NCBI GenBank assembly: GCA_017484225.1
Contig: JAFUTN010000003.1
Span: 4,851-68,850 of the forward strand
Reading direction: 5' to 3'
Source: Alphaproteobacteria bacterium
Lineage (GTDB): Bacteria; Pseudomonadota; Alphaproteobacteria; RF32; CAG-239
Length of the DNA: 64,000 bases
Shown: positions 3,614-64,000 of the stretch, piece by piece
Layout of the letters: each line of letters starts with the position of its first letter
Numbering within the stretch: position 1 is the stretch's first letter
Translations under genes and position numbers: made by a program
The notes under the pieces: generated by a model
The model's database searches: none
What the model saw: the letters and a program-made list of their open reading frames with translations, nothing else
Told to the model about the DNA's origin: nothing

Positions 3614-3686
3614 AAAACAAAACATTCTTTACATTAACGTAAATATTTGATAACATCTTTTTCAGGATATGTAAAAGACGTATCTC

Positions 3687-3871
3687 AGGGGATTAGAAAA
3701 CCCTTAAAATAAACGCAAAACTTGTATATTCAAGTCCTTTTTTTATACCGATAAAACTCGTAAATGGGTGTGATGTCGGTGAATAAGGCTATATGCTCAA
3801 TAAACTGAGCCGTTTTTAACGTTTATTTTACGGTTTTCTAACATCCGCCCACCGATTCAGGTGGCTTTTTT
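3687..3871 (+). promoter_or_regulatory. Structured leader RNA, copy 1 (degenerate variant), ending in an intrinsic terminator
   Basis: Has the family blocks AACCCT, GATGTCGGTGAATAAGG, GAGCC, ACGGTTTTCTAACATCCGCCC. Helices are AAAATAAACG (3706-3715) / CGTTTATTTT (3820-3829) and TTAGAAAACC (3693-3702) / GGTTTTCTAA (3832-3841). Terminator is CCACC-GATTCA-GGTGG-CTTTTTT (3849-3871). Confidence 0.75.
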
Positions 3872-3895: not shown

Positions 3896-4621
3896 ATGTT
3901 TGAAATGAAACATTTGTTATTTATTTTTTGTTTTATCGGTGCCGGTGCTGCTTTTGCCGAAACATGGAATTGCGGACCGGCAACTGACGGGGTGTATAGT
4001 GACAGCGTTAAATGCACGTATGATGAGGCAACAAAAACGCTTACCATATCAGGCGAAGGAGAAATGGGCGATTATAATGCTATAGATATTAATGGAGAGG
4101 ACGTATCCGATACACCATGGCTAAGAAAAGATATTGTTCACGCCGTTGTGGAAAAAGGTGTAACCACAATCGGAGACAGAGTATTTAAGGCATTATACAA
4201 TTTGGAAGATGTCACCGGATTGGAAAATATAACTTCTGTCGGCATAGCTTCTTTTTCTCAGGCACATAAGCTAGAAAGTGTAGACCTTCCTAATGTGCAA
4301 AATGTAGGCAGCAGCGCTTTTTATAGAACATTGAATTTGCAGTATGCAGGAATACCGGATGGTGTTATATTTGGCTACCGACAAGATCAGCCTGATGTAT
4401 TTGAAGGTTCTATGATTCCTAATTGCAAAACCGGAGACTGCGGAAGCTGCGGAGAAAAATTCGTGCAAGCGGGAGTTGGTTGTGTAAATGATTGCTATGT
4501 CGGATATTATCCGACGAATCAAGGATACTGCAAAATAATTAAACTCCGTTACACCCTGCCGGAAGCGGATGCGGCAACAAGTAATGACAATGAAAACACG
4601 ATTGAGTGGATTTTTGAGTAA
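3896..4621 (+). CDS. Secreted BspA-type LRR / Cys-rich protein, paralog 1 (IEWIFE-tag family)
   Basis: 241 aa. Signal peptide with AFA-ETW cleavage-like site, LRR_5-like repeats (..IGDRVF..L..V.GLENITSVG..AF..), a CGSCGEKFVQAGVGC module and the C-terminal RYTLPEADAATSNDNENTIEWIFE. The true start is probably the second ATG at 3905, because the first ATG overlaps the AAAGGA SD. Confidence 0.85.
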   Translation: MFEMKHLLFIFCFIGAGAAFAETWNCGPATDGVYSDSVKCTYDEATKTLTISGEGEMGDYNAIDINGEDVSDTPWLRKDIVHAVVEKGVTTIGDRVFKALYNLEDVTGLENITSVGIASFSQAHKLESVDLPNVQNVGSSAFYRTLNLQYAGIPDGVIFGYRQDQPDVFEGSMIPNCKTGDCGSCGEKFVQAGVGCVNDCYVGYYPTNQGYCKIIKLRYTLPEADAATSNDNENTIEWIFE

Positions 4622-10321: not shown

Positions 10322-10391
10322 TAAATATTGTTTCTTTACAAAAAAACTTTCTTTTGCTAAAGTAATTCTACGGTATGAAAAAACATGCCGG

Positions 10392-10559
10392 AGGGCGTCA
10401 CAACCCTAAACAGAAACGGTTGCACATATTTGCAACAACAAAATGTGCTGGTATTCGCGTTTGTGCGGATGTCAGCTGAATAAGGTTATGCCGAATAGGT
10501 TGAGCCGTCTGTTTCTGTACGGTTTGTGAACATCCGCCCGTTTTTGAACGGGATTTTTT
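10392..10559 (+). promoter_or_regulatory. Structured leader RNA, copy 2, ending in an intrinsic terminator
   Basis: Sequence AGGGCGTCACAACCCT ... GCGGATGTCAGCTGAATAAGG ... GAGCC ... ACGGTTTGTGAACATCCGCCC. Helices are ACAGAAAC/GTTTCTGT and CAC-AACC/GGTT-T-GTG. Terminator is CCCGTT-TTTG-AACGGG-ATTTTTT. Confidence 0.8.
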
Positions 10560-10585: not shown

Positions 10586-11443
10586 ATGTTTGAAATGAAA
10601 CATTTAATACTTGCGGTAGCATTAACTTTTTTTGCCACACAGACGAATGCCGAAACTGCCGGAATTATCGGAACATGGCCTTGCGGTGCCGATTGCACGG
10701 CAACCCTTGATGATAAGGGAAATTTTCTGGTTGTCGGCAACGGACCAATGAATGACTATGGAACTACTCATGCATCTAATGGAGCGCCATTATTAACTAC
10801 TGCACCTTGGGCAGAACACCTTAGAGAAATTAAAAACATTGAAATAAACGGTGTCTCAAATGTTGGAAGAGATGCTTTTTTTTACAATGAAGGAGGCTCT
10901 CTAAAGCTACAATCCATAAAATTTGATGACACCGTTGAAACCATAAAAGGCGGTGCATTCCATAAAACAGAGTGTTCATATATTGAGCTGCCCGATTCTA
11001 TCAAAAAAATAGAAAGTTACGCCTTTTCAGGGCGCACAGAAATAGTTGTTCCCGATACATTAAATTCTATTACAGGAGACAGGCCTTTTGGTCAATATGC
11101 ATTAACAAATCTAAAAATTGTATGCAGAGGAAATAATTGTTTAAATGTTGAAAATTTATTTAAAAAATATACTCGCTATTTTGATGGTGCATGGATAACG
11201 GAAGATTTAAGCAATAATGTATATCTTGCCGGAGAAAATCAGTGCAATAGTGCAAAATATTATTGGACCGGCGGTTTGTGCAATAATCGCCCGACCGACG
11301 GAAGTGCAATAGAATGTGATGAAGGGTGGTATGCTACCAATAAAGATGTATGCGCAAGAATCAAGCTTCGCTATACCATACCGGAAGCCGACGAGGCAAC
11401 AAGCAACGATAACGAAAATACGATTGAGTGGATTTTTGAATGA
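10586..11443 (+). CDS. Secreted BspA-type LRR / Cys-rich protein, paralog 2
   Basis: 285 aa. Signal peptide, IIGTWPCGADCTATLDD N-terminal module, LRR-like repeats, and a C-terminal module CNSAKYYWTGGLCNNRPTDGSAIECDEGWYATNKDVCARIKLRYTIPEADEATSNDNENTIEWIFE. The likely start is the second ATG at 10595. Confidence 0.85.
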   Translation: MFEMKHLILAVALTFFATQTNAETAGIIGTWPCGADCTATLDDKGNFLVVGNGPMNDYGTTHASNGAPLLTTAPWAEHLREIKNIEINGVSNVGRDAFFYNEGGSLKLQSIKFDDTVETIKGGAFHKTECSYIELPDSIKKIESYAFSGRTEIVVPDTLNSITGDRPFGQYALTNLKIVCRGNNCLNVENLFKKYTRYFDGAWITEDLSNNVYLAGENQCNSAKYYWTGGLCNNRPTDGSAIECDEGWYATNKDVCARIKLRYTIPEADEATSNDNENTIEWIFE

Positions 11444-15225: not shown

Positions 15226-15330
15226 ACAAAACTCCGTGATATTAAATTCTCTGACATATTAAATAATTTTTATCGGTCTTGCAACCATAAAAAATTTTTT
15301 AGCAAAAATAGTCTTTATTGAGTAGCCGAG

Positions 15331-15362
15331 ATTATCGGTTATTGCTTCGCAATCCCGATAAT
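15331..15362 (-). terminator. Conserved 3' hairpin downstream of LRR paralog 3
   Basis: ATTATCGG-TT-ATTGC-TTC-GCAAT-C-CCGATAAT. Nearly the same hairpin follows paralog 7 (48577-48608). It has no clear U-tract. Confidence 0.4.
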
Positions 15363-15395
15363 GACAGAAAAAAGAGTGCGGTTGATAATGACTCT

Positions 15396-16211
15396 TTACT
15401 CAAAAATCCATTCTATCGTGTTTTCAAAGTCATCAGATGTCGCCGCATCCGCTTCCGGTATAGTATAGCGGAGTTTAATGACTTCGCAATATCCCTTACT
15501 TGTCGGATAATAGCCGTCAAAACAATTACCTACACACCCCGCACCTGCTTGCACGAATTTATCCCCACAACTGCCGCAGTCTCCACCGTTGCCGCATCCG
15601 CTTACTAATGTATTTGAAAAAGCATCTTCAGCTACATTTGCATCTTCAGGTATTCCGATATATTTTAATTTATTTCCGTCAAGTCCTTTGTTACCATTAT
15701 ATCCCTTAAAAGCTCCAATTCCAATCACTTTTACGTTAGGCATATCAACACTTTCTAATACTTTTGAAAATTTAAAAGCACCATCGCCGATATTTTCCAC
15801 CAAAGGCATATAAATGGAAGTCGCCGCATAGGGGTCATAAAAAGCCAAGGTGCCTATTTTTTTTACTCCCGGCATATAAATATTTTCGGCTTTTCTGGCT
15901 CCGTTAAATGCGTTGGCTCCGATTTCATCAACACCGCTTTCTACAACGATATTTTTTATTCTATTCATATTTGCTTGTGTTCCTCCCCATGGTGCGGTTG
16001 ATACCGACAATCCACCATCAACAACACGTCCGAAATCTGCCATTTTACCGGTTCCGGAAACAGTAAAATTACCATCTTCATCCAATGTGCATTTTACGTT
16101 TGCACCATAATTACCATCAGAATCTTTTTCTCCGCAATTCCATGTTTCGGCATAAGTTTTATTCGCAAAACATATAACAATTCCCAACATCAACACAATT
16201 TTTTTCATCAT
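15396..16211 (-). CDS. Secreted BspA-type LRR / Cys-rich protein, paralog 3
   Basis: 271 aa. Signal peptide, ETWNCG, LRR_5-like repeats, CGSCGDKFVQAGAGC module, and C-terminus LRYTIPEADAATSDDFENTIEWIFE. It has its own AAAGGAG SD. Confidence 0.85.
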   Translation of the reverse strand: MMKKIVLMLGIVICFANKTYAETWNCGEKDSDGNYGANVKCTLDEDGNFTVSGTGKMADFGRVVDGGLSVSTAPWGGTQANMNRIKNIVVESGVDEIGANAFNGARKAENIYMPGVKKIGTLAFYDPYAATSIYMPLVENIGDGAFKFSKVLESVDMPNVKVIGIGAFKGYNGNKGLDGNKLKYIGIPEDANVAEDAFSNTLVSGCGNGGDCGSCGDKFVQAGAGCVGNCFDGYYPTSKGYCEVIKLRYTIPEADAATSDDFENTIEWIFE

Positions 16212-16239
16212 TTTTCTCCTTTAAGCAAAATTTTCAAAC

Positions 16240-16470
16240 AAAAAATCGCCTCATTTTCGGAGACGATCGGGGAGTTGACAAATCATGTTAAGGGTAATGA
16301 CTATTATGACCTTTAGCTTAAAAATTTAAGCTTGAACATACGCCATAATCTCCCCGACCAATGCGGGGAATAAATTCAGATACAAAAAAACAGCATCCGA
16401 CGGATACTATTTCAGTATCCCCTTAACATAGAGCCTGTCACAGCCCCGAACCTCTCGGTTCTAAAATGAA
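16240..16470 (-). promoter_or_regulatory. Second, unrelated structured leader with an intrinsic terminator (upstream of paralog 3)
   Basis: In RNA sense: GAACC-GAGA-GGTTC hairpin, a 10-bp long-range helix ATGTTAAGGG (16420-16429 rc) / CCCTTAACAT (16285-16294 rc), and nested hairpins GATACT..AGTATC, TCCCCG..CGGGGA, ATTATG..CATAAT, GCTTAAA..TTTAAGC. Terminator is TCGTCTC-CGAAAAT-GAGGCGA-TTTTTT (16240-16266). Confidence 0.6.
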
Positions 16471-16548
16471 TTTTTGTTCATTCTGCCGGAAGAATAACAT
16501 ATAAAAAAAATATTGTCAAAAAAGAAAATCTACCGCTAAAACAAAACG

Positions 16549-22214: not shown

Positions 22215-22318
22215 ATTTATATATCCTTCTTTTTTCCGGTTAAACCTCCGCAGAAACTCGGCCTTTCGGCACCGGAGCGAAAAACTTTTCAGCCTTCCGC
22301 CTGTCTGCGTGTGTAATT

Positions 22319-22403: not shown

Positions 22404-23126
22404 TTATTCAAATATCCACTCAATCCAATTTTCATTGTCATCAGAAGTCAATTCATCTGCTTCTTGTATAGTGTATCTTGTTCTATATACCGGTATTTCT
22501 TTAACAAAATTTCCCATATTCAGCAACGAAGAAACATAAGTTCTACAACTATCCTCAGAACAAGAATTTATTATTTCATCTTTACAGTCCGCAGCATTTT
22601 TTTCCAAACAATAAATATTGGATTCCGGTGATATTGTTGTATTATTAAACAAATTTGCCATATAGTTTACAGCTCCGGATAAAATAATATCTCCTGAAAT
22701 GTTATTACCCTTAAACACTTCCCGATCTATTCCGTTAAGTTGTATTTGACCTTCTTTTCCTACAATATTTGCACCCAATCCCAAAAAAGCATAAGCTCCT
22801 ACGCTAAAATCACCGTCAATAACTACCGTTTTAACGGTTATTTCTCCATTTCCACTCGGAAATGTCTTTTTGCTGGTATCCGTTTGATAGGAAAACGGCA
22901 TAAATGCACCCGCTTTTATTGTTGCATTTTCTCCTGTTGCCTTAACGGTCAAGGTTTCTGTTTCCAAATCATAACTGTAAGTGCAACCTGTGCCGCAATT
23001 ATTTTCAATATCCGGTTTCCATTCATTGCACGAAACGGCATAACCGTCGTAGCATTCAACCGCCTCTGCCGTTTGAAAATTAAACATTACAAAAACAAAA
23101 AATATAAAAAACTTCATAACAAACAT
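22404..23126 (-). CDS. Secreted Cys-rich repeat protein, paralog 4 (most divergent family member)
   Basis: 240 aa. Signal peptide, divergent repeat core, and C-terminus RTRYTIQEADELTSDDNENWIEWIFE. The likely start is the second ATG at 23117. Confidence 0.8.
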   Translation of the reverse strand: MFVMKFFIFFVFVMFNFQTAEAVECYDGYAVSCNEWKPDIENNCGTGCTYSYDLETETLTVKATGENATIKAGAFMPFSYQTDTSKKTFPSGNGEITVKTVVIDGDFSVGAYAFLGLGANIVGKEGQIQLNGIDREVFKGNNISGDIILSGAVNYMANLFNNTTISPESNIYCLEKNAADCKDEIINSCSEDSCRTYVSSLLNMGNFVKEIPVYRTRYTIQEADELTSDDNENWIEWIFE

Positions 23127-23153: not shown

Positions 23154-23314
23154 AAAAAAACCACCTCAAATGGTGGGCGGATGTTAGTAAACCGTATATA
23201 CGCAAACGGCTCAACCTATTCGGTATAACCTTATTCAGCTGACATCCGCTCAAAGCAAATACCAGCAAAAAGCCGTTAAACAACGACTGCGTATATTCAG
23301 GGTTACTACGCCCT
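23154..23314 (-). promoter_or_regulatory. Structured leader RNA, copy 3 of the shared class, ending in an intrinsic terminator
   Basis: RNA sense: AGGGCGTAGTAACCCT ... GCGGATGTCAGCTGAATAAGGTTATACCGAATAGGTTGAGCC ... ACGGTTTACTAACATCCGCCC. Helices are ATATACGCA/TGCGTATAT and AGT-AACC/GGTT-T-ACT. Terminator is CCACC-ATTTGA-GGTGG-TTTTTTT. Confidence 0.8.
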
Positions 23315-23383
23315 AAAGTGGTTTTGTATCCCACTCTGCAAATATTCTAGCAAAAAAAGATTTTTTGTAAAGATTTTTTGTTT

Positions 23384-41709: not shown

Positions 41710-42414
41710 TCACTCAAAAATCCATTCTATCGTGTTTTCGTTGTCATCACTTGTTGCCGCATCTGCTTCCGGCAATGTGTAACGTGTGCGCGTGCAAAAC
41801 CCGTAATATGAAGTATATCCTTCAGGACACGAAGAAACACAACCAACTCCCGCTTGCACGAATTTTTCTCCGCAACTCCAACATTCTCCGGTTTTATGAC
41901 AATTCGGAATTTTTGAATTTTGAAAAGGTGTTTCTCCCCCACCAAATTCATCTTCCGAAAAAACAACATCTTCCGGAAGTTCAATATATTCCAATAATCT
42001 GGTACCCTTAAATGCTCTGCTTCCGATTTCCTGCACATTAGGCAAAAAAAGATTTTTTAAACTGTAAGTATAGGCAAAAGCAGAGTTTCCGATTTTTGTG
42101 ATATTTTCAAGTCCTGAAACATCACTAAGATTATGTAAATTATGAAAGACTCTGTTTCCAATGCTTGTAACATTACCTTCAACCACGGCGTGCCTTATAT
42201 CTTTTCCTTGCCATGGTGTGTATATATCTTTTACATAATCCCCCATTTCGCCTTCACCGGAAATTGTTAAAGTTTTACTTATCTCATTATACGTGCATTT
42301 AACGCTGTCACTATATACACCATTAGTTGCAGGTCCGCAGTTCCATGTTTCGGCAAAAGCAGCACCGGCACCGATAAAACAAAAAATAAATAACAAATGT
42401 TTCATTTCAAACAT
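41710..42414 (-). CDS. Secreted BspA-type LRR / Cys-rich protein, paralog 5
   Basis: Starts at MFEMKHLL (42414; the second ATG at 42405 is more likely). The first ~45 codons are nearly identical in nucleotide sequence to paralog 1. C-terminus is CGEKFVQAGVGCVSSCPEGYTSYYGFCTRTRYTLPEADAATSDDNENTIEWIFE. The track ORF extension to 42543 runs through the leader RNA. Confidence 0.85.
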   Translation of the reverse strand: MFEMKHLLFIFCFIGAGAAFAETWNCGPATNGVYSDSVKCTYNEISKTLTISGEGEMGDYVKDIYTPWQGKDIRHAVVEGNVTSIGNRVFHNLHNLSDVSGLENITKIGNSAFAYTYSLKNLFLPNVQEIGSRAFKGTRLLEYIELPEDVVFSEDEFGGGETPFQNSKIPNCHKTGECWSCGEKFVQAGVGCVSSCPEGYTSYYGFCTRTRYTLPEADAATSDDNENTIEWIFE

Positions 42415-42438: not shown

Positions 42439-42624
42439 AAAAAAGCCACCTGAATCGGTGGGCGGATGTTCAGAAACCATACAAGTATTAAGATGGCTCG
42501 GCGTTTTCGCGCAAAAAGCCTTATTGCACCGACATCCGCTCAAAACAGAATGAACGAATTATCGGTTTAAACCTCAAAAAATCACAAACTTGTGACTAAT
42601 ACTTGTAAAGGGTTCTGACGCCCT
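42439..42624 (-). promoter_or_regulatory. Structured leader RNA, copy 4 of the shared class, ending in an intrinsic terminator
   Basis: RNA sense: AGGGCGTCAGAACCCT ... GCGGATGTCGGTGCAATAAGGC ... CGCCGAGCC ... TGGTTTCTGAACATCCGCCC. Helices are TACAAGTATTA/TAATACTTGTA and CAG-AACC/GGTT-T-CTG. Terminator is CCACC-GATTCA-GGTGG-CTTTTTT. Confidence 0.8.
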
Positions 42625-42749
42625 GAAGTGCGCTTATTTCACACTCTGTTCTTCATAATAGCAAATAATTTTTCTTTTGCAATTAAAAAAGTGTGGTGTT
42701 TTATTAAGCCTTTTTTAAAAAGAATTGATGTAAAATCAGGCCAAGTTTT

Positions 42750-47284: not shown

Positions 47285-47370
47285 CTGCATTTTAAGTTAC
47301 GGAATTAAAATCTTTACAAACATAAACTTTTTTGATAACCTTTTGACGAAGTATGTAAAAAACCTACTTT

Positions 47371-47544
47371 AGGGCGTAGCAACCCTTTGAAAAAATCTGT
47401 CGTTTTATGACGATATGTATGCCGATTTCGCATGTATTGATGTGCGGATGTCGGTGTTATAAGGCTTAAAGCACGAAATCGCCGAGCCGATTTGATTTTT
47501 TCACGGTTTGCTAACATCCGCCCACCATTTAAGGTGGCTTTTTT
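47371..47544 (+). promoter_or_regulatory. Structured leader RNA, copy 5 of the shared class, ending in an intrinsic terminator
   Basis: AGGGCGTAGCAACCCT ... GCGGATGTCGGTGTTATAAGGC ... CGCCGAGCC ... ACGGTTTGCTAACATCCGCCC. Helices are GAAAAAATC (47389-47397) / GATTTTTTC (47494-47502) and AGC-AACC/GGTT-T-GCT. Terminator is CCACC-ATTTAA-GGTGG-CTTTTTT. Confidence 0.8.
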
Positions 47545-47571: not shown

Positions 47572-48387
47572 ATGTTTGTAATGAAAAAAGTTAGCTTAAT
47601 TTGCTTTTTTATTCTTTTATCACTAAATGCGAAAGCAAAAATTATCGGCACATGGCCATGCGGAGATGATTGCACGGCAACTCTTGATGACAGCGGGCAT
47701 TTCAAGGTTACCGGAACCGGTGCTACACTGACCTATGGTCATTATTCGCAACCATGGAGCGATAAACTTTCACAGATAACTTCGGTGGAAATAGAAGGTT
47801 TAACGACTATAAACACCAATCTGACTTATTTTTCTCCGATTACGGAATTGAAATTAAGTGATTCCGTTAAGAATATTCTCGGTGGATTTGAAGGTAATCA
47901 CTTGCAAAAGCTGGAACTTCCCGACTCTGTGGAAAGAATTTCAAATTATGCCTTGGCAAGCTCTTCTCTTGTTGAAATTATTGTTCCGGATTCTATTTTA
48001 TCGTTTGGTGGACCGAATAGTTTGGGAGGGCTTGGGCAAATACAAGATAAAAACATCATTTGTCGCGGAGATAATTGCGATAAAGTATCAGATTTGCTCA
48101 AAAATTACATAATCACATACAAAATTAACGGAGAATATCATACAGCCGATGTCAGCGACAGGATGTCATTAGCCGGGGAAAATCAGTGCAACAGTGCAAA
48201 ATATTATTGGACCGGCGGTTTGTGTAATAATCGCCCGACCGACGGAAGTGCAATAGAATGTGACGAAGGGTGGTATGCTACCAATAAAGATGTGTGTGCC
48301 AGAATTAAAATACGTTACACCATTCCGGAAGCAGATGAATTAACCTCAAATGACAACGAAAATATGATTGAGTGGATTTTTGAGTAA
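47572..48387 (+). CDS. Secreted LRR / Cys-rich protein, paralog 6
   Basis: 271 aa. Has the IIGTWPCGDDCTATLDD N-terminal module, like paralog 2. Its C-terminal ~60 aa are almost identical to paralog 2 and it ends IRYTIPEADELTSNDNENMIEWIFE. The likely start is 47581. Confidence 0.85.
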   Translation: MFVMKKVSLICFFILLSLNAKAKIIGTWPCGDDCTATLDDSGHFKVTGTGATLTYGHYSQPWSDKLSQITSVEIEGLTTINTNLTYFSPITELKLSDSVKNILGGFEGNHLQKLELPDSVERISNYALASSSLVEIIVPDSILSFGGPNSLGGLGQIQDKNIICRGDNCDKVSDLLKNYIITYKINGEYHTADVSDRMSLAGENQCNSAKYYWTGGLCNNRPTDGSAIECDEGWYATNKDVCARIKIRYTIPEADELTSNDNENMIEWIFE

Positions 48388-48400
48388 AAAAATATCCGCA

Positions 48401-48554
48401 GTCATCTTGAACCCCGAGCGATAGCGAGTGGGTGTAAAGATCTCACGTTTCAGGAACGGAGTTTATTGTTACGCACTGCATAACAACAAACACTTTCTTG
48501 CTTTAAAAAGATCTTTACGGGGATTTCGCTTATCGCTCAACCCCTCAAGATGAC
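48401..48554. repeat. MITE-like long imperfect inverted repeat between convergent paralogs 6 and 7
   Basis: The left arm (48401-48443) and right arm (48509-48554) share the blocks GTCATCTTGA, GAGCGATA, GCGA and TAAAGATCT in inverted orientation around a ~65-bp core. Each arm also folds on itself (ACCC..GGGT / GGGG..CCCC). Confidence 0.5.
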
Positions 48555-48576
48555 AGTGAAATATTAAATTGCGGAG

Positions 48577-48608
48577 ATTATCGGTTATTGCCTTGCAATC
48601 CCGATAAT
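48577..48608 (-). terminator. Conserved 3' hairpin downstream of LRR paralog 7
   Basis: ATTATCGG-TT-ATTGC-CTT-GCAAT-C-CCGATAAT. It is the same element as 15331-15362. Confidence 0.4.
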
Positions 48609-48614
48609 GACTCT

Positions 48615-49358
48615 TTATTCAAAAATCCATTCAATCATATTTTCGTTATCATTACTTGTCGCCGCATCAGCTTCCGGTAAGGTATAGCGTTTGCGCGTGC
48701 AAAACCCATAATATGAAGTATATCCTGTATAACAACTACTTACACACCCAACTCCCGCTTGCACAAATTTTTCTCCGCAACTTCCGCATTCTCCGGTTTT
48801 TCGGCAGTTTGATAATTTTGAACCACCAAAAGTCTCTCTATTACTGGCTGCAACCGTATCCGGACCATAGATAACGCCATCCGGAATACCGACATATTCC
48901 AGGCTACTTGTTCCATAAAAAGCGATACCACCTATTTCCTGCACATTAGGTAAATCTATGCTTATCAAAGAAGCGGCTCCATAAAAGGCAGTATCTCCGA
49001 CAGAAACTATATTTTCTGTGCCTTCAATATCTTGCAAATTACGAGCATTCTTAAAAGTTCTGGCTCCGATACTGGTTACATTGCCTTCCACAACTGCATG
49101 AACGATATCTTTACCAAACCATGGGGCAGTAGATCCGTCTTTTCCATTCACACTAGCATAAGGATAATCACCCATTTCTCCCTCGCCGGAAATTGTTAAA
49201 GTTTTTGTTGCCTCATCATAGGTGCATTTCACGCTGTCACTGTATACCCCGTCGGTTGCCGGCCCGCAGTTCCATGTTTCGGCTCTTGCTTTATTTACCA
49301 AAACAAAAATTAAAGAAAATATAAGTCCTAAAAATCCAAAACGTTTCATTTCAAACAT
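48615..49358 (-). CDS. Secreted BspA-type LRR / Cys-rich protein, paralog 7
   Basis: 247 aa. ETWNCGPATDGVYSDSVKCTYDEATKTLTISGEGEMGDY is identical to paralog 1. Has LRR_5-like repeats and the C-terminus GYTSYYGFCTRKRYTLPEADAATSNDNENMIEWIFE. The likely start is 49349. Confidence 0.85.
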   Translation of the reverse strand: MFEMKRFGFLGLIFSLIFVLVNKARAETWNCGPATDGVYSDSVKCTYDEATKTLTISGEGEMGDYPYASVNGKDGSTAPWFGKDIVHAVVEGNVTSIGARTFKNARNLQDIEGTENIVSVGDTAFYGAASLISIDLPNVQEIGGIAFYGTSSLEYVGIPDGVIYGPDTVAASNRETFGGSKLSNCRKTGECGSCGEKFVQAGVGCVSSCYTGYTSYYGFCTRKRYTLPEADAATSNDNENMIEWIFE

Positions 49359-49385: not shown

Positions 49386-49572
49386 AAAAAAACCCGCTTC
49401 AAAAAGACGGGCGGATGTTAGCAAACCGTATTCTATCAACCGGCTCGGCGTTTTCGCGCTTTTTATAAGAGCCTTATTACACCGACATCCGCTCCACAAA
49501 AAAGAACGAAGTCGGTAAACACCAACAAATCGCAATAAATGCGACCGATAGAATAAAGGGTTGCTACGCCCT
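49386..49572 (-). promoter_or_regulatory. Structured leader RNA, copy 6 of the shared class, ending in an intrinsic terminator
   Basis: RNA sense: AGGGCGTAGCAACCCT ... GCGGATGTCGGTGTAATAAGGC ... CGCCGAGCC ... ACGGTTTGCTAACATCCGCCC. Helices are ATTCTATC/GATAGAAT and AGC-AACC/GGTT-T-GCT. Terminator is CCCGTCTT..GAAGCGGG-TTTTTTT. Confidence 0.8.
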
Positions 49573-49651
49573 GAAGTGTACTTATCTCACACTCCGGAGT
49601 TGATTTTAACAGAAGTAATAAAAATTGTAAAGTCCGAAATATATGCTGATT

Positions 49652-63014: not shown

Positions 63015-63115
63015 AAATTTGACAAATTATCAACAAAAAATAATCCGGAAAAGAATCTTTACAAATAATCAAAATTTTGATAGGTTACAAACAGAATACG
63101 AAATCAGCGTATTTC

Positions 63116-63291
63116 AGGGCGTGACAACCCTTTGTAAAACTCTGTCGCAATACTTTGCGAACAAATTACCGATAGTTCGTTCTTGTAATGAGCGGATGTC
63201 GGTGTTATAAGGCTTTAGCACGAAATCGCCGAGCCGTTTTGAGTTTTACACGGTTTGTCAACATCCGCCCACCAATTCAGGTGGCTTTTTT
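63116..63291 (+). promoter_or_regulatory. Structured leader RNA, copy 7 of the shared class, ending in an intrinsic terminator
   Basis: AGGGCGTGACAACCCT ... GCGGATGTCGGTGTTATAAGGC ... CGCCGAGCC ... ACGGTTTGTCAACATCCGCCC. Helices are GTAAAACTC/GAGTTTTAC and GAC-AACC/GGTT-T-GTC. Terminator is CCACC-AATTCA-GGTGG-CTTTTTT. Confidence 0.8.
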
Positions 63292-63314: not shown

Positions 63315-64000
63315 ATGTTTGATATGAAATATTTAGCATTTACTTTTTGTTTTATCGGTGCAGGTGTTGCCTTTGCCGAAACATGGAATTGCGGACCGGC
63401 AACCGACGGGGTATACAGCGACAGTGTTAAATGCACGTATGATGAGGAAAGTAAGACTTTAACCATTTCCGGCGAAGGACCAATGGGGAATTATGCTTCA
63501 ATAAATAATAACTCCACGGCTCCGTGGTATGGCAAAGATATTGTTCATGCCGTTATAGAAGGAAATGTAACAAGTATCGGAGACAGGGTATTTAAGCACG
63601 CTGAGAATTTAACAGATATTGTCGGGTTAGAAAATATAACACACCTTGGTTATGCCTCATTCAGTGGAGCCTCTTCACTGGTTAGTATTGATTTACCTAA
63701 TGTGCAGGAAATAGGCGGCGTTGCTTTTCATTATACATCAAGTCTTGAGTATGCCGGTATTCCGGATGATGTTACTTATGGTTCGGACCCTTTATCACGC
63801 GATAATTTTGAGGGTTCAAAATTATCAAATTGCCGAAAAACCGGAGAATGCGGCAGCTGCGGAGATAAATTTGTGCAAGCGGGAGTTGGGTGTGTTTCTT
63901 CGTGTCCTGAAGGATATACTTCATATTATGGGTTTTGCACGCGCACACGTTACACTCTGCCGGAAGCCGACGAGGCAACAAGTAATGATAACGAAAACAC
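63315..64000 (+). CDS. Secreted BspA-type LRR / Cys-rich protein, paralog 8 (3' end runs off the window)
   Basis: Not in the ORF track because no stop is reached. My own translation gives M(FDM)KYLAFTFCFIGAGVAFAETWNCGPATDGVYSDSVKCTYDEESKTLTISGEGPMGNY ... CGDKFVQAGVGCVSSCPEGYTSYYGFCTRTRYTLPEADEATSNDNEN. The likely start is 63324. Confidence 0.85.
   Translation, partial: MFDMKYLAFTFCFIGAGVAFAETWNCGPATDGVYSDSVKCTYDEESKTLTISGEGPMGNYASINNNSTAPWYGKDIVHAVIEGNVTSIGDRVFKHAENLTDIVGLENITHLGYASFSGASSLVSIDLPNVQEIGGVAFHYTSSLEYAGIPDDVTYGSDPLSRDNFEGSKLSNCRKTGECGSCGDKFVQAGVGCVSSCPEGYTSYYGFCTRTRYTLPEADEATSNDNEN

Follow-up and report, generated by a model that had tools for sequence, protein, structure and literature searches.

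Why do eight proteins encoded within one short piece of a bacterial genome, which differ over most of their length, carry nearly the same peptide at their C-terminus, and how is the expression of their genes controlled? This question is raised by contig JAFUTN010000003.1 of an alphaproteobacterial assembly, of which a stretch of 64,000 nt was analysed (hereafter the window; GC content 37%). The answer goes beyond the first description of this locus: the terminal peptide (tag) belongs to a clade-wide superfamily, and its genes are preceded by an undescribed, two-state leader RNA, whose layout is like that of the C4 antisense RNA of phages P1 and P7.

All eight open reading frames (ORFs; p1 to p8) reported in the initial annotation were recovered from the ORF list and its translations, with the same coordinates and strands. 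The seven complete ones end on a 24-residue tag placed right before the stop codon, while p8 is truncated inside the tag by the window edge (LRR, leucine-rich repeat; AF2, AlphaFold2; pLDDT, predicted local distance difference test):

p1, 3896..4621, plus strand: predicted exported LRR_5 and Cys-rich protein, tagged; probable true start 3905; LRR_5 E-value 5.5e-10; AF2 pLDDT 85.5; signal peptide, 8 Cys
p1 tag, 4547..4618, plus strand: RYTLPEADAATSNDNENTIEWIFE, without Pfam, NCBIfam or PDB match
p2, 10586..11443, plus strand: LRR_5 and Cys-rich protein, tagged
p2 tag, 11369..11440, plus strand: RYTIPEADEATSNDNENTIEWIFE
p3, 15396..16211, minus strand: LRR_5 and Cys-rich protein, tagged
p3 tag, 15399..15470, minus strand: RYTIPEADAATSDDFENTIEWIFE
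p4, 22404..23126, minus strand: predicted exported, Cys-containing protein, tagged; no LRR_5 match
p4 tag, 22407..22478, minus strand: RYTIQEADELTSDDNENWIEWIFE
p5, 41710..42414, minus strand: LRR_5 and Cys-rich protein, tagged
p5 tag, 41713..41784, minus strand: RYTLPEADAATSDDNENTIEWIFE
p6, 47572..48387, plus strand: LRR_5 and Cys-rich protein, tagged
p6 tag, 48313..48384, plus strand: RYTIPEADELTSNDNENMIEWIFE
p7, 48615..49358, minus strand: LRR_5 and Cys-rich protein, tagged
p7 tag, 48618..48689, minus strand: RYTLPEADAATSNDNENMIEWIFE
p8, 63315..64000, plus strand: LRR_5 and Cys-rich protein; the window end falls inside the tag
p8 partial tag, 63948..63998, plus strand: RYTLPEADEATSNDNEN

The second in-frame ATG (MKH...) is probably the true start of p1, because database homologues begin there and the first ATG (MFEM...) sits within the conserved sequence of the Shine-Dalgarno (SD) region, AAAGGATGT.

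In the window the tag reads RYT[LI][PQ]EAD[AE][AL]TS[ND]D[NF]EN[TMW]IEWIFE and is followed by the stop codon; the tail as a whole is about 25 residues long, hydrophilic and devoid of any hydrophobic run (e.g. SNDNENTIEWIFE). A degenerate back-translated tag pattern gave 6 matches in the window against 0 in 100 shuffled sequences, and scanning of the window in all frames revealed no further tag copies or pseudogene copies. The mean column identity of the family alignment is 29%, while the tag is nearly invariant. Across the 24 tag codons of the seven complete paralogs, identity reaches 87.5% at codon positions 1 and 2 and 58.7% at position 3, and the invariant residues are encoded by more than one codon (for Ser, AGT, AGC, TCT and TCA). 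Since third positions diverge and both Ser codon families are used, selection acts on the tag peptide, not on the DNA.

These figures bear directly on the idea that the conserved 3' end has a nucleic-acid function, either as a site at which cassettes are exchanged by recombination or gene conversion, or as a 3' regulatory RNA. The genes may indeed be likened to recombining surface gene families, in that both of their ends (the leader and signal peptide on one side, the tag on the other) are conserved and the middle is variable. In addition, the convergent tag-coding ends of p6 and p7 (48352-48388 and 48614-48650) form a 37-nt inverted repeat, 92% complementary, which exists because both ends encode the tag and which could pair in RNA or DNA. 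Synonymous variation (about 59% identity at third positions against 87.5% at the other two, and two Ser codon families) nevertheless led us to reject conservation at the DNA level, and the tag variants of other genomes, described below, keep the amino-acid pattern on unrelated DNA. We regard this explanation as hardly probable at all.

The tag noted in the initial annotation is thus real, but its membership in a wider superfamily, as one flavour among several, had been overlooked. It is carried nearly unchanged by close p1 homologues, whose only annotation is 'MAG: Alphaproteobacteria bacterium, leucine-rich repeat protein' (MAG, metagenome-assembled genome), and two p1 homologues terminate instead in RIRWTPAEAAKVLHDDNTNSVTITFKK and KKRWTPAEANEWLHDGNDNFVVLTFKK. 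An exhaustive HMMER search with a tail profile against 1.84e9 cluster representatives yielded 248 clusters at E<=1e-3. Among the 150 of these clusters that were listed, all tag matches lie no more than 2 residues from the C-terminus, except in P0202, a 1653-aa protein whose internal partial matches were judged spurious. The N-terminal parts fused to the tag comprise LRR_5 repeats, Cys-rich domains of the Ephrin_rec_like/TNFR type, small proteins recognisable by their Cys only, and proteins without nearby Cys. The core common to 354 distinct tails is [KR]-x-[RI]-[YW]-T-x-x-E-A-x(7-9)-N-x-[VIF]-x-[IWL]-x-[FY]-(E|K|R|KK)-COOH, in which E-A and N are invariant, T is near-invariant and the terminal aromatic is F or Y; the pattern used to anchor the tails demanded E/K-A/E, N and F/Y, so that the invariance of these residues is partly built in.

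At least five lineage-specific flavours (IEWIFE, ITFKK in two versions, IRYR and LRYK) can be distinguished, all in rumen or gut alphaproteobacterial MAGs. Scanning with DNA patterns of one genome per GTDB species located flavours B and C in at least 39 genes, all of them in the single MAG JAZSBR01, and flavour D (KRIYTIDEAN.VAG..N...I[RK]YR) in 98 stretches of only two rumen MAGs, RUG13121 and RUG11221, with a copy number of 89 across both. Flavour E (KRIYTVEEAS.LSKPTGNTF.LRYK), present in RGIG5118, and other variants occur in further MAGs. The exact DNA pattern of flavour A, the one found in the window, had 0 matches in 185k species representatives, though it works in the window; therefore the window species, or its flavour, is not among these representatives. 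Tail-only profiles run against a word-indexed database of 5.8e9 entries returned short fragments only, or 2 matches. The tag is nearly invariant within one genome and different between lineages, and its flavour goes with the genome instead of the protein subfamily, since A, B and C are all found on LRR proteins of the AETWNCG type.

That the tag could not be recognised as any described sorting domain was upheld by profile searches. Neither Pfam-A nor NCBIfam r20 (including the sorting models derived from TIGRFAM) gave a tail match with the 8 window proteins or with 10 further proteins of flavours A, B and C, a tail profile obtained no match in PDB, and literature searches returned nothing on the family or the tag. 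A known sorting domain was thus rejected as the identity of the tail.

What kind of protein carries it? Sec-type signal peptides, with a K/R n-region and an h-region of 10-15 residues, are present in all eight window proteins, as initially claimed. Their cleavage sites are AxA-like (AFA|E, TNA|E, TYA|E, AEA|V, AKA|K and ARA|E), and the hydrophobic stretch is followed by 8 Cys in seven proteins and by 9 in p2. Because of these signal peptides and the cysteine content, export of the family is likely. Its assignment to BspA/LRR_5-like proteins holds for seven of the eight, in which LRR_5 (PF13306) scores 30.8-51.2 bits (cut-off 27.7; E-values of 3e-7 to 1.5e-13) and the solenoid makes up the N-terminal 60%, but not for p4, which lacks any Pfam domain. 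AF2 predicts a right-handed LRR solenoid with pLDDT >95 over residues ~21-150, for which Foldseek found 4h09 (E 6e-7, probability 1.0), and the matches of a whole-family profile to PDB entries (down to E 6e-37) cover the LRR part only, stopping at about residue 161. The models for flavours A (pLDDT 85.5) and C (80.7), one protein each, are concordant: an LRR solenoid is followed by Cys-rich β-hairpins, a short helix, which covers P-x-E-A-x-x-x of the tail, and an unpacked terminal segment. Along the tail pLDDT drops from 68 to 53 (flavour A) and from 83 to 73 (flavour C), and the last ~14 residues are predicted to be unpacked.

Genomes with flavours B and C show two peculiarities in this part of the protein. 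Their signal peptides end in ..[IV]SES[RWSL]A|E (P0056, P0069 and many JAZSBR01 proteins, e.g. L022, L014 and L029), which reads as a conserved c-region, unusual for Sec signals. Furthermore, many JAZSBR01 tag genes contain a repeated sequence of 150-300 nt inserted in frame between the post-leader ATG and the signal peptide; its translation is ..NEKNKSAVILNPERSEWVSRSH.. or ..KSSENCDKFSKSVSYET.., and the frame stays open (L025, L026, L020, L031, L035, L007, L010, L011, L017 and L028). In these genes, either the signal peptide would be internal or an internal start would be used.

The conserved helix-turn-strand, with its invariant E-A and N, would suit a tail that is a functional module in its own right, such as an oligomerisation or capping strand, a peptide that binds a ligand of the host or of prey, or a loop that binds metal (D/N-x-N-x-N). 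In LRR proteins the tail always comes after the Cys-rich hairpin or a similar module, and its Asn/Asp-rich turn, on inspection, resembles Ca-binding loops. The EF-hand register, however, misfits flavours B to E, in which Lys replaces the bidentate Glu. Moreover, the tail is fused to unrelated N-terminal architectures, some of them without nearby Cys, it is strictly terminal in the 150 clusters listed (bar P0202), it is far better conserved than the attached domains (near-invariance against the 29% mean column identity), and its flavour follows the genome rather than the protein subfamily. We consider such an intrinsic role unlikely, while keeping it as a candidate.

The tail has the signature through which earlier C-terminal sorting signals came to light: it is strictly terminal, portable, present in dozens of copies per genome and of genome-specific flavour, and it ends in an unpacked amphipathic strand. 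These five traits argue for recognition of the tail in trans by one co-evolving partner per genome. Judged from the sequences and structural models, there is about an even chance that it is a sorting or anchoring signal read in this manner. A sorting, secretion or anchoring role had been proposed in the initial annotation, and the exclusion of a known domain, the likely export and the terminal, portable and multi-copy nature of the tag speak for it, although the function is only inferred. On the two points on which that proposal depended, the searches gave no match to a known sorting domain and the signal peptides favour export.

According to the mechanism that we propose, the window proteins would be members of an exported, disulfide-rich protein family that is very large, lineage-specific and mostly of the BspA-type LRR kind. 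Their tail would be a portable module in which a short strand (R-Y/W-T) leads into a helix (P-x-E-A-x-x-x) and, after a turn rich in Asn, into an amphipathic terminal strand, which ends in an aromatic and one or two charged residues. The proteins would first be exported by Sec and form their disulfides; one cognate envelope component per genome would then read the tail, probably by β-strand augmentation of the free terminal strand, and would direct the tagged proteins across or onto the outer membrane.

Several observations weigh against this proposal. In the loci around tag genes, no sortase-like enzyme, dedicated Omp85 protein or secretin, or partner protein was found. The tail contains neither a transmembrane segment nor a β-sandwich, which sets it mechanistically apart from every established sorting signal, and the disorder that AF2 predicts for the terminal peptide is weak evidence. 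The acidic character of flavour A and the basic one of flavours B to E are hard to square with a generic interaction with membrane or lipopolysaccharide. Finally, the leader RNA described below is not exclusive to tag genes, so that co-regulation says little about the tag.

The strict need for a free C-terminus and the amphipathic terminal strand with its aromatic residue would also fit a motif recognised by a periplasmic protease or by a quality-control system (Prc/CtpA-type, or the PDZ domains of DegS/DegP), controlling turnover or activation. A related contig does encode an HtrA-type Trypsin-PDZ protease, but as a housekeeping gene. The PDZ domains of DegS/DegP and of the Prc/CtpA type prefer a hydrophobic or aromatic COOH end, whereas the termini of the tagged proteins are charged (E, KK, R or K), and a conserved module of 25 residues exceeds what such motifs need. 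This role therefore appears quite improbable, and we keep a sorting or anchoring signal as the preferred reading of the tail.

The second part of the answer lies upstream of the genes. That each of them has its own leader holds in all eight cases, but this description was an understatement, since the leaders constitute one conserved structured RNA family (CM, covariance model; HMM, hidden Markov model):

p1 leader, 3662..3871, plus strand: class I; CM R1 132 bits; nhmmer
p2 leader, 10367..10559, plus strand: class I; CM R1 146.9 bits
p3 leader, 16228..16473, minus strand: class II; nhmmer with the class II HMM, 204.6 bits
p4 leader, 23154..23339, minus strand: class I; CM R1 167.9 bits; Rfam sRNA-Xcc1 at 26.5 bits, sub-threshold
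p5 leader, 42439..42649, minus strand: class I; CM R1 188.8 bits
p6 leader, 47346..47544, plus strand: class I; CM R1 184.8 bits; Rfam C4 at 25.8 bits, sub-threshold; terminator-like CCACC/GGTGG hairpin and U-tract at 47522-47537
p7 leader, 49387..49597, minus strand: class I; CM R1 175.2 bits; promoter TTTACA-17-TAAAAT (TG-extended) at 49631-49603, promoter scan 10/12
p8 leader, 63091..63291, plus strand: class I; CM R1 180 bits; Rfam C4 at 29.5 and sRNA-Xcc1 at 27.5 bits, both below gathering; fold z-score -4.0

Alignment of the upstream regions revealed a conserved promoter (TTTACA-17-TGnTAnnnT) and then a leader of ~210 nt, which ends in a short GC hairpin and a U-tract just upstream of the SD sequence. 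A cmscan of the whole window with Rfam 15 assigned no riboswitch or cis-regulatory family to the leaders at gathering score. Three sequence classes of the leader share one architecture: with a CM built from 14 class I copies, full-length matches were obtained to class III (E 1e-5 to 1e-11) and to two class II copies (E 6e-5 and 3e-4).

The leader can be drawn in two folds. In fold 1, a segment on the 5' side with the sequence GGGCG-U-NNN-AACC base-pairs with GGUU-NNN-A...CGCCC, close to the 3' end, and the pairing extends into a helix of 9-14 bp, whose sequence is different in each of the 14 class I copies; the self-complementarity of this copy-specific helix averages 10.9 bp, against 5.0 bp in cross-copy controls. 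In 32 leaders from three genomes, 96.4% of cells are paired in fold 1, against 69.5% in shuffles and 33-42% with slid partners, and compensatory changes occur in 27 of the 31 pairs, counts that lean towards the model structure because the alignment was fitted to the model. In fold 2, the same 3' strand pairs with an internal segment to form stem P1, which closes a domain of two hairpins (H1 and P3). The compensatory changes supporting it fall mostly between classes (pair 120/284: GC 13, CG 10, UA 5; pair 162/278: AU 15, UA 14; pair 244/267: CG 16, UA 15). Because strands are shared, folds 1 and 2 are mutually exclusive, and in 13 class I leaders the full-length RNA is more stable in fold 1, its thermodynamic ground state, by 5-18 kcal/mol. 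Of the 14 class I copies, 13 have an identical stem P1, only the p1 leader being different. The combination of variable helices with a constant stem P1 could equally reflect selection for copy-specific (orthogonal) recognition, like that between phages P1 and P7, or relaxed sequence constraint.

In the model that we favour, each gene would be a self-contained cassette, composed of a sigma-70 promoter, the structured leader of ~210 nt, the hairpin with its U-tract, an SD sequence and the gene itself. Because the leader can adopt two exclusive folds, the expression of the paralogs would probably be set after initiation, at the RNA level. A simple terminator/antiterminator logic was considered and rejected on sequence inspection: the overlap between the alternative helices and the terminator differs between leader classes, so that no single terminator rule can be derived.

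A tag gene follows about 45 of the 47 assessable leaders of the window (8/8), of L001/L002 and of the JAZSBR01 loci. The corresponding figures are 35-36 of 41 complete downstream ORFs in the two flavour-D MAGs and, among the matches listed, about 26 of 44 leaders in a scan of about 20 MAGs for the class II motif. There are 45 class II copies of the leader in loci from two MAGs, and at least 30 copies in loci from a third. The remaining leaders precede mostly envelope genes, encoding type IVb pilins, an autotransporter, O-antigen-type transferases, namely glycosyltransferases of family 2 (GT2) and an Acyl_transf_3 protein, and small helix-turn-helix (HTH) proteins. The leader thus marks a regulon of mostly envelope and surface genes and is not tag-specific. 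Targets of these kinds are as follows:

L005, 6877-7497, plus strand: leader-borne type IVb pilin
L136, 810-1466, plus strand: leader-borne type IVb pilin
L161, 5363-5980, plus strand: leader-borne type IVb pilin
L195, 212-790, minus strand: leader-borne type IVb pilin
L237, L252, L278 and L223: leader-borne type IVb pilins
L236 and L268: autotransporter behind a class II leader
L234, L281 and L242: GT2 behind a class II leader
L253: Acyl_transf_3 behind a class II leader
L254, L255 and L273: 73-aa HTH protein behind a class II leader

The type IVb pilin cassettes (Pfam PilS/Bundlin; N-terminus G|RSM[IV]EMLGVLAIIGVLS) stand behind the leader in several related MAGs, which may connect the tag family with a type IVb pilus. 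The tail might accordingly be a docking or secretion signal for such a pilus, by which tagged proteins would be carried out or displayed via a (minor) pilin. In at least 4 genomes, pilin genes repeatedly share this leader RNA with the tag genes and are single-gene cassettes of the same design, and the free terminal strand seen in the models would suit β-augmentation. TcpF and CofJ are known to use the type IVb pili TCP (toxin-coregulated pilus) and CFA/III (colonization factor antigen III) through short linear signals, but these signals are N-terminal and the tail is C-terminal. Besides, no pilus assembly genes were seen adjoining tag genes, and the leader is not pilin-specific, being found also on genes of an autotransporter, glycosyl- and acyltransferases and small HTH proteins. 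We therefore hold the pilus route to be rather unlikely, and still favour a signal read by a cognate envelope component.

The significance of the tag lies in its having the genomic signature of sorting signals without any known architecture, in an uncultured, host-associated alphaproteobacterial clade that lacks described surface biology. Exported families with a common terminal tag have repeatedly led to new machines (exosortase, rhombosortase and the type IX secretion system, T9SS). If the sorting reading is true, hundreds of substrates are already defined, and the machine could be found through covariation of tag flavour and partner. The leader matters independently of the tag, as an RNA of ~210 nt that is multi-copy, absent from Rfam and able to form two exclusive folds supported by covariation. 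Taken together, the two parts would amount to a new sorting or anchoring pathway, with a signal of ~25 residues co-evolving with its receptor through flavours A to E, plus a new cis-encoded riboregulator, derived from C4 or convergent with it; this joint picture we put forward only tentatively. If it is true, the copy-specific 'barcode' helices (a/b) would make each cassette orthogonal and individually switchable, and RNA-level phase variation of a surface repertoire of at least 39 members would take place without DNA rearrangement.

The surroundings of the genes were described initially as housekeeping units, and this is borne out for the first ~22 kb (p1-p3), where precomputed Pfam calls, read from an identical contig of the same study (ruminant gastrointestinal metagenomes), comprise polyprenyl_synt, GIDA/TrmFO, OmpA, valS, SufBD, EF-Ts and S2. 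TrmFO places the window organism among ~55 species-level MAGs of rumen, gut and faecal origin (67-80% identity), its next relatives (Micavibrio, Rhizomicrobium and Bartonella) being at <=60%. The gene ispA adjoins trmFO in 0 of the ~55 relatives fetched with TrmFO for a synteny comparison of the cassette insertion. The claim that each gene has its own 3' hairpin or terminator stands in full for p2, which has a canonical terminator; a common repeated hairpin was found for p3 and p7 and a common pair resembling repetitive extragenic palindromic (REP) elements for p6 and p7, and the others have weak hairpins only. The near-identical hairpin of p3 and p7, GTCATTATCGGGATTGC.A.GCAATAACCGATAAT, lies right after the stop codon (~15325-15395 and ~48572-48614, both on the minus strand) and constitutes a small repeated element. 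The REP-like hairpin pair, GTCATCTTGAACCCCGAGCGATAGCGAGTGGGTGTAAAGATCTCA and an inverted relative, occupies the 3' intergenic space between the convergent p6 and p7 (~48395-48610), and relatives of these elements are present in the JAZSBR01 MAG. The sole Rfam family at threshold in the window is the rpsB leader (RF01815), upstream of rpsB (22222-22313, minus strand; 41.9 bits, gathering 40).

How do the tagged proteins compare with known systems? They have the same LRR_5 solenoid as BspA-type LRR proteins (4h09, 4gt6, 4fs7 and TpLRR of T. pallidum, 6mlx), which are secreted or surface proteins of gut bacteria, but these solved or modelled relatives are without the Cys-rich hairpin module and the tail. 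BspA proteins are anchored by T9SS C-terminal domains (CTDs), lipidation, choline-binding or LPXTG, all of which are lacking in the window family. With the T9SS CTD and the signals of PEP-CTERM/exosortase, GlyGly-CTERM/rhombosortase and LPXTG/sortase systems it has in common the genomic signature, i.e. dozens of unrelated exported proteins per genome with strictly C-terminal homology, in a region that is likewise near-identical within a genome and of lineage-specific flavour. Unlike the PEP, GlyGly and LPXTG signals, the tail has no signature motif with a hydrophobic transmembrane helix and a basic cluster behind it, and this type was rejected, as the tail is hydrophilic and has no NCBIfam match. 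A T9SS CTD is a β-sandwich of 70-100 aa, whereas the tail comprises ~25 aa; CTDs (TIGR04183, TIGR04131 and Pfam models; Por_Secre_tail/CHU_C types) gave no tail match at E<=1 and were rejected as well.

The β-signal of outer-membrane proteins (OMPs), which is read by BamA and has a terminal Phe, offers another parallel. In the last 6-7 residues of the tail, polar and hydrophobic positions alternate and an aromatic stands close to the end (V-T-I-T-F, F-R-L-R-Y, I-E-W-I-F), and an autotransporter of the same clade ends in ...LNAKYKF. In the tail, however, the aromatic is followed by 1-2 charged residues and is not itself C-terminal, the upstream helix and Asn turn have no counterpart in the β-signal, and the tagged proteins are predicted to be small soluble solenoids, not β-barrels. 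An outer-membrane β-barrel or autotransporter identity was rejected: there is no Autotransporter or OMP Pfam match, AF2 predicts a solenoid with hairpins, and the terminus is charged.

For the leader, the closest parallel is the C4 RNA. The order in the phage P1 record is promoter P1c4, a1, b1, 66 nt, C4 RNA, a2, b2 and icd/ant, and the leader has the same order of promoter, a1-like and b1-like segments, a spacer of ~50-70 nt (66 in phage P1) and an outer stem with hairpins 1 and 2. In phage P1 C4, b' lies in the hairpin-2 loop, a' is a 7-nt junction (CUGUCAA) before the 3' strand of the outer stem, and the RNA ends in ...CCACC. The a1-like and b1-like segments of the leader similarly pair with the junction (UUU-NNN-AA) and the hairpin-2 loop, in a copy-specific manner and with strong covariation; phages P1 and P7 likewise differ in a'/b'. 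Helices P1, H1 and P3 of the leader covary and match the outer stem and two hairpins of C4, and five of the seven class I leaders of the window continue with ...CCACC after stem P1, as C4 does. C4 is processed at the 5' end by RNase P to an RNA of ~77 nt. By analogy, fold 1 may be the counterpart of the precursor, in which a1/b1 are paired, and fold 2 that of mature C4. At the level of sequence, Rfam C4 (RF01695) and its clan member sRNA-Xcc1 reported 3 of the 8 leaders, all below gathering (best 29.5 against 45 and 27.5 against 53 bits), CM R1 scored a non-significant 2.5 bits on the c4 region of phage P1, and a search for downstream a2/b2-like targets over the ribosome-binding site gave none above background (self 7.7 bp, cross 8.0 bp). 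The leader differs from phage P1 C4 also in having a hairpin like that of an intrinsic terminator after the RNA, and in its context of chromosomal surface-protein genes instead of prophage immunity. A phage origin was rejected: the class II motif had 0 matches in IMG/VR, and the single match of the class I seed is a chance one, located in a phage structural gene and unconfirmed by CM. The resemblance of leader and C4 thus appears to be architectural only. In both phage P1 and the leader, however, the regulated genes follow on the same transcript, and this layout suggests that the design of a phage immunity RNA has been reused for the control of chromosomal surface genes.

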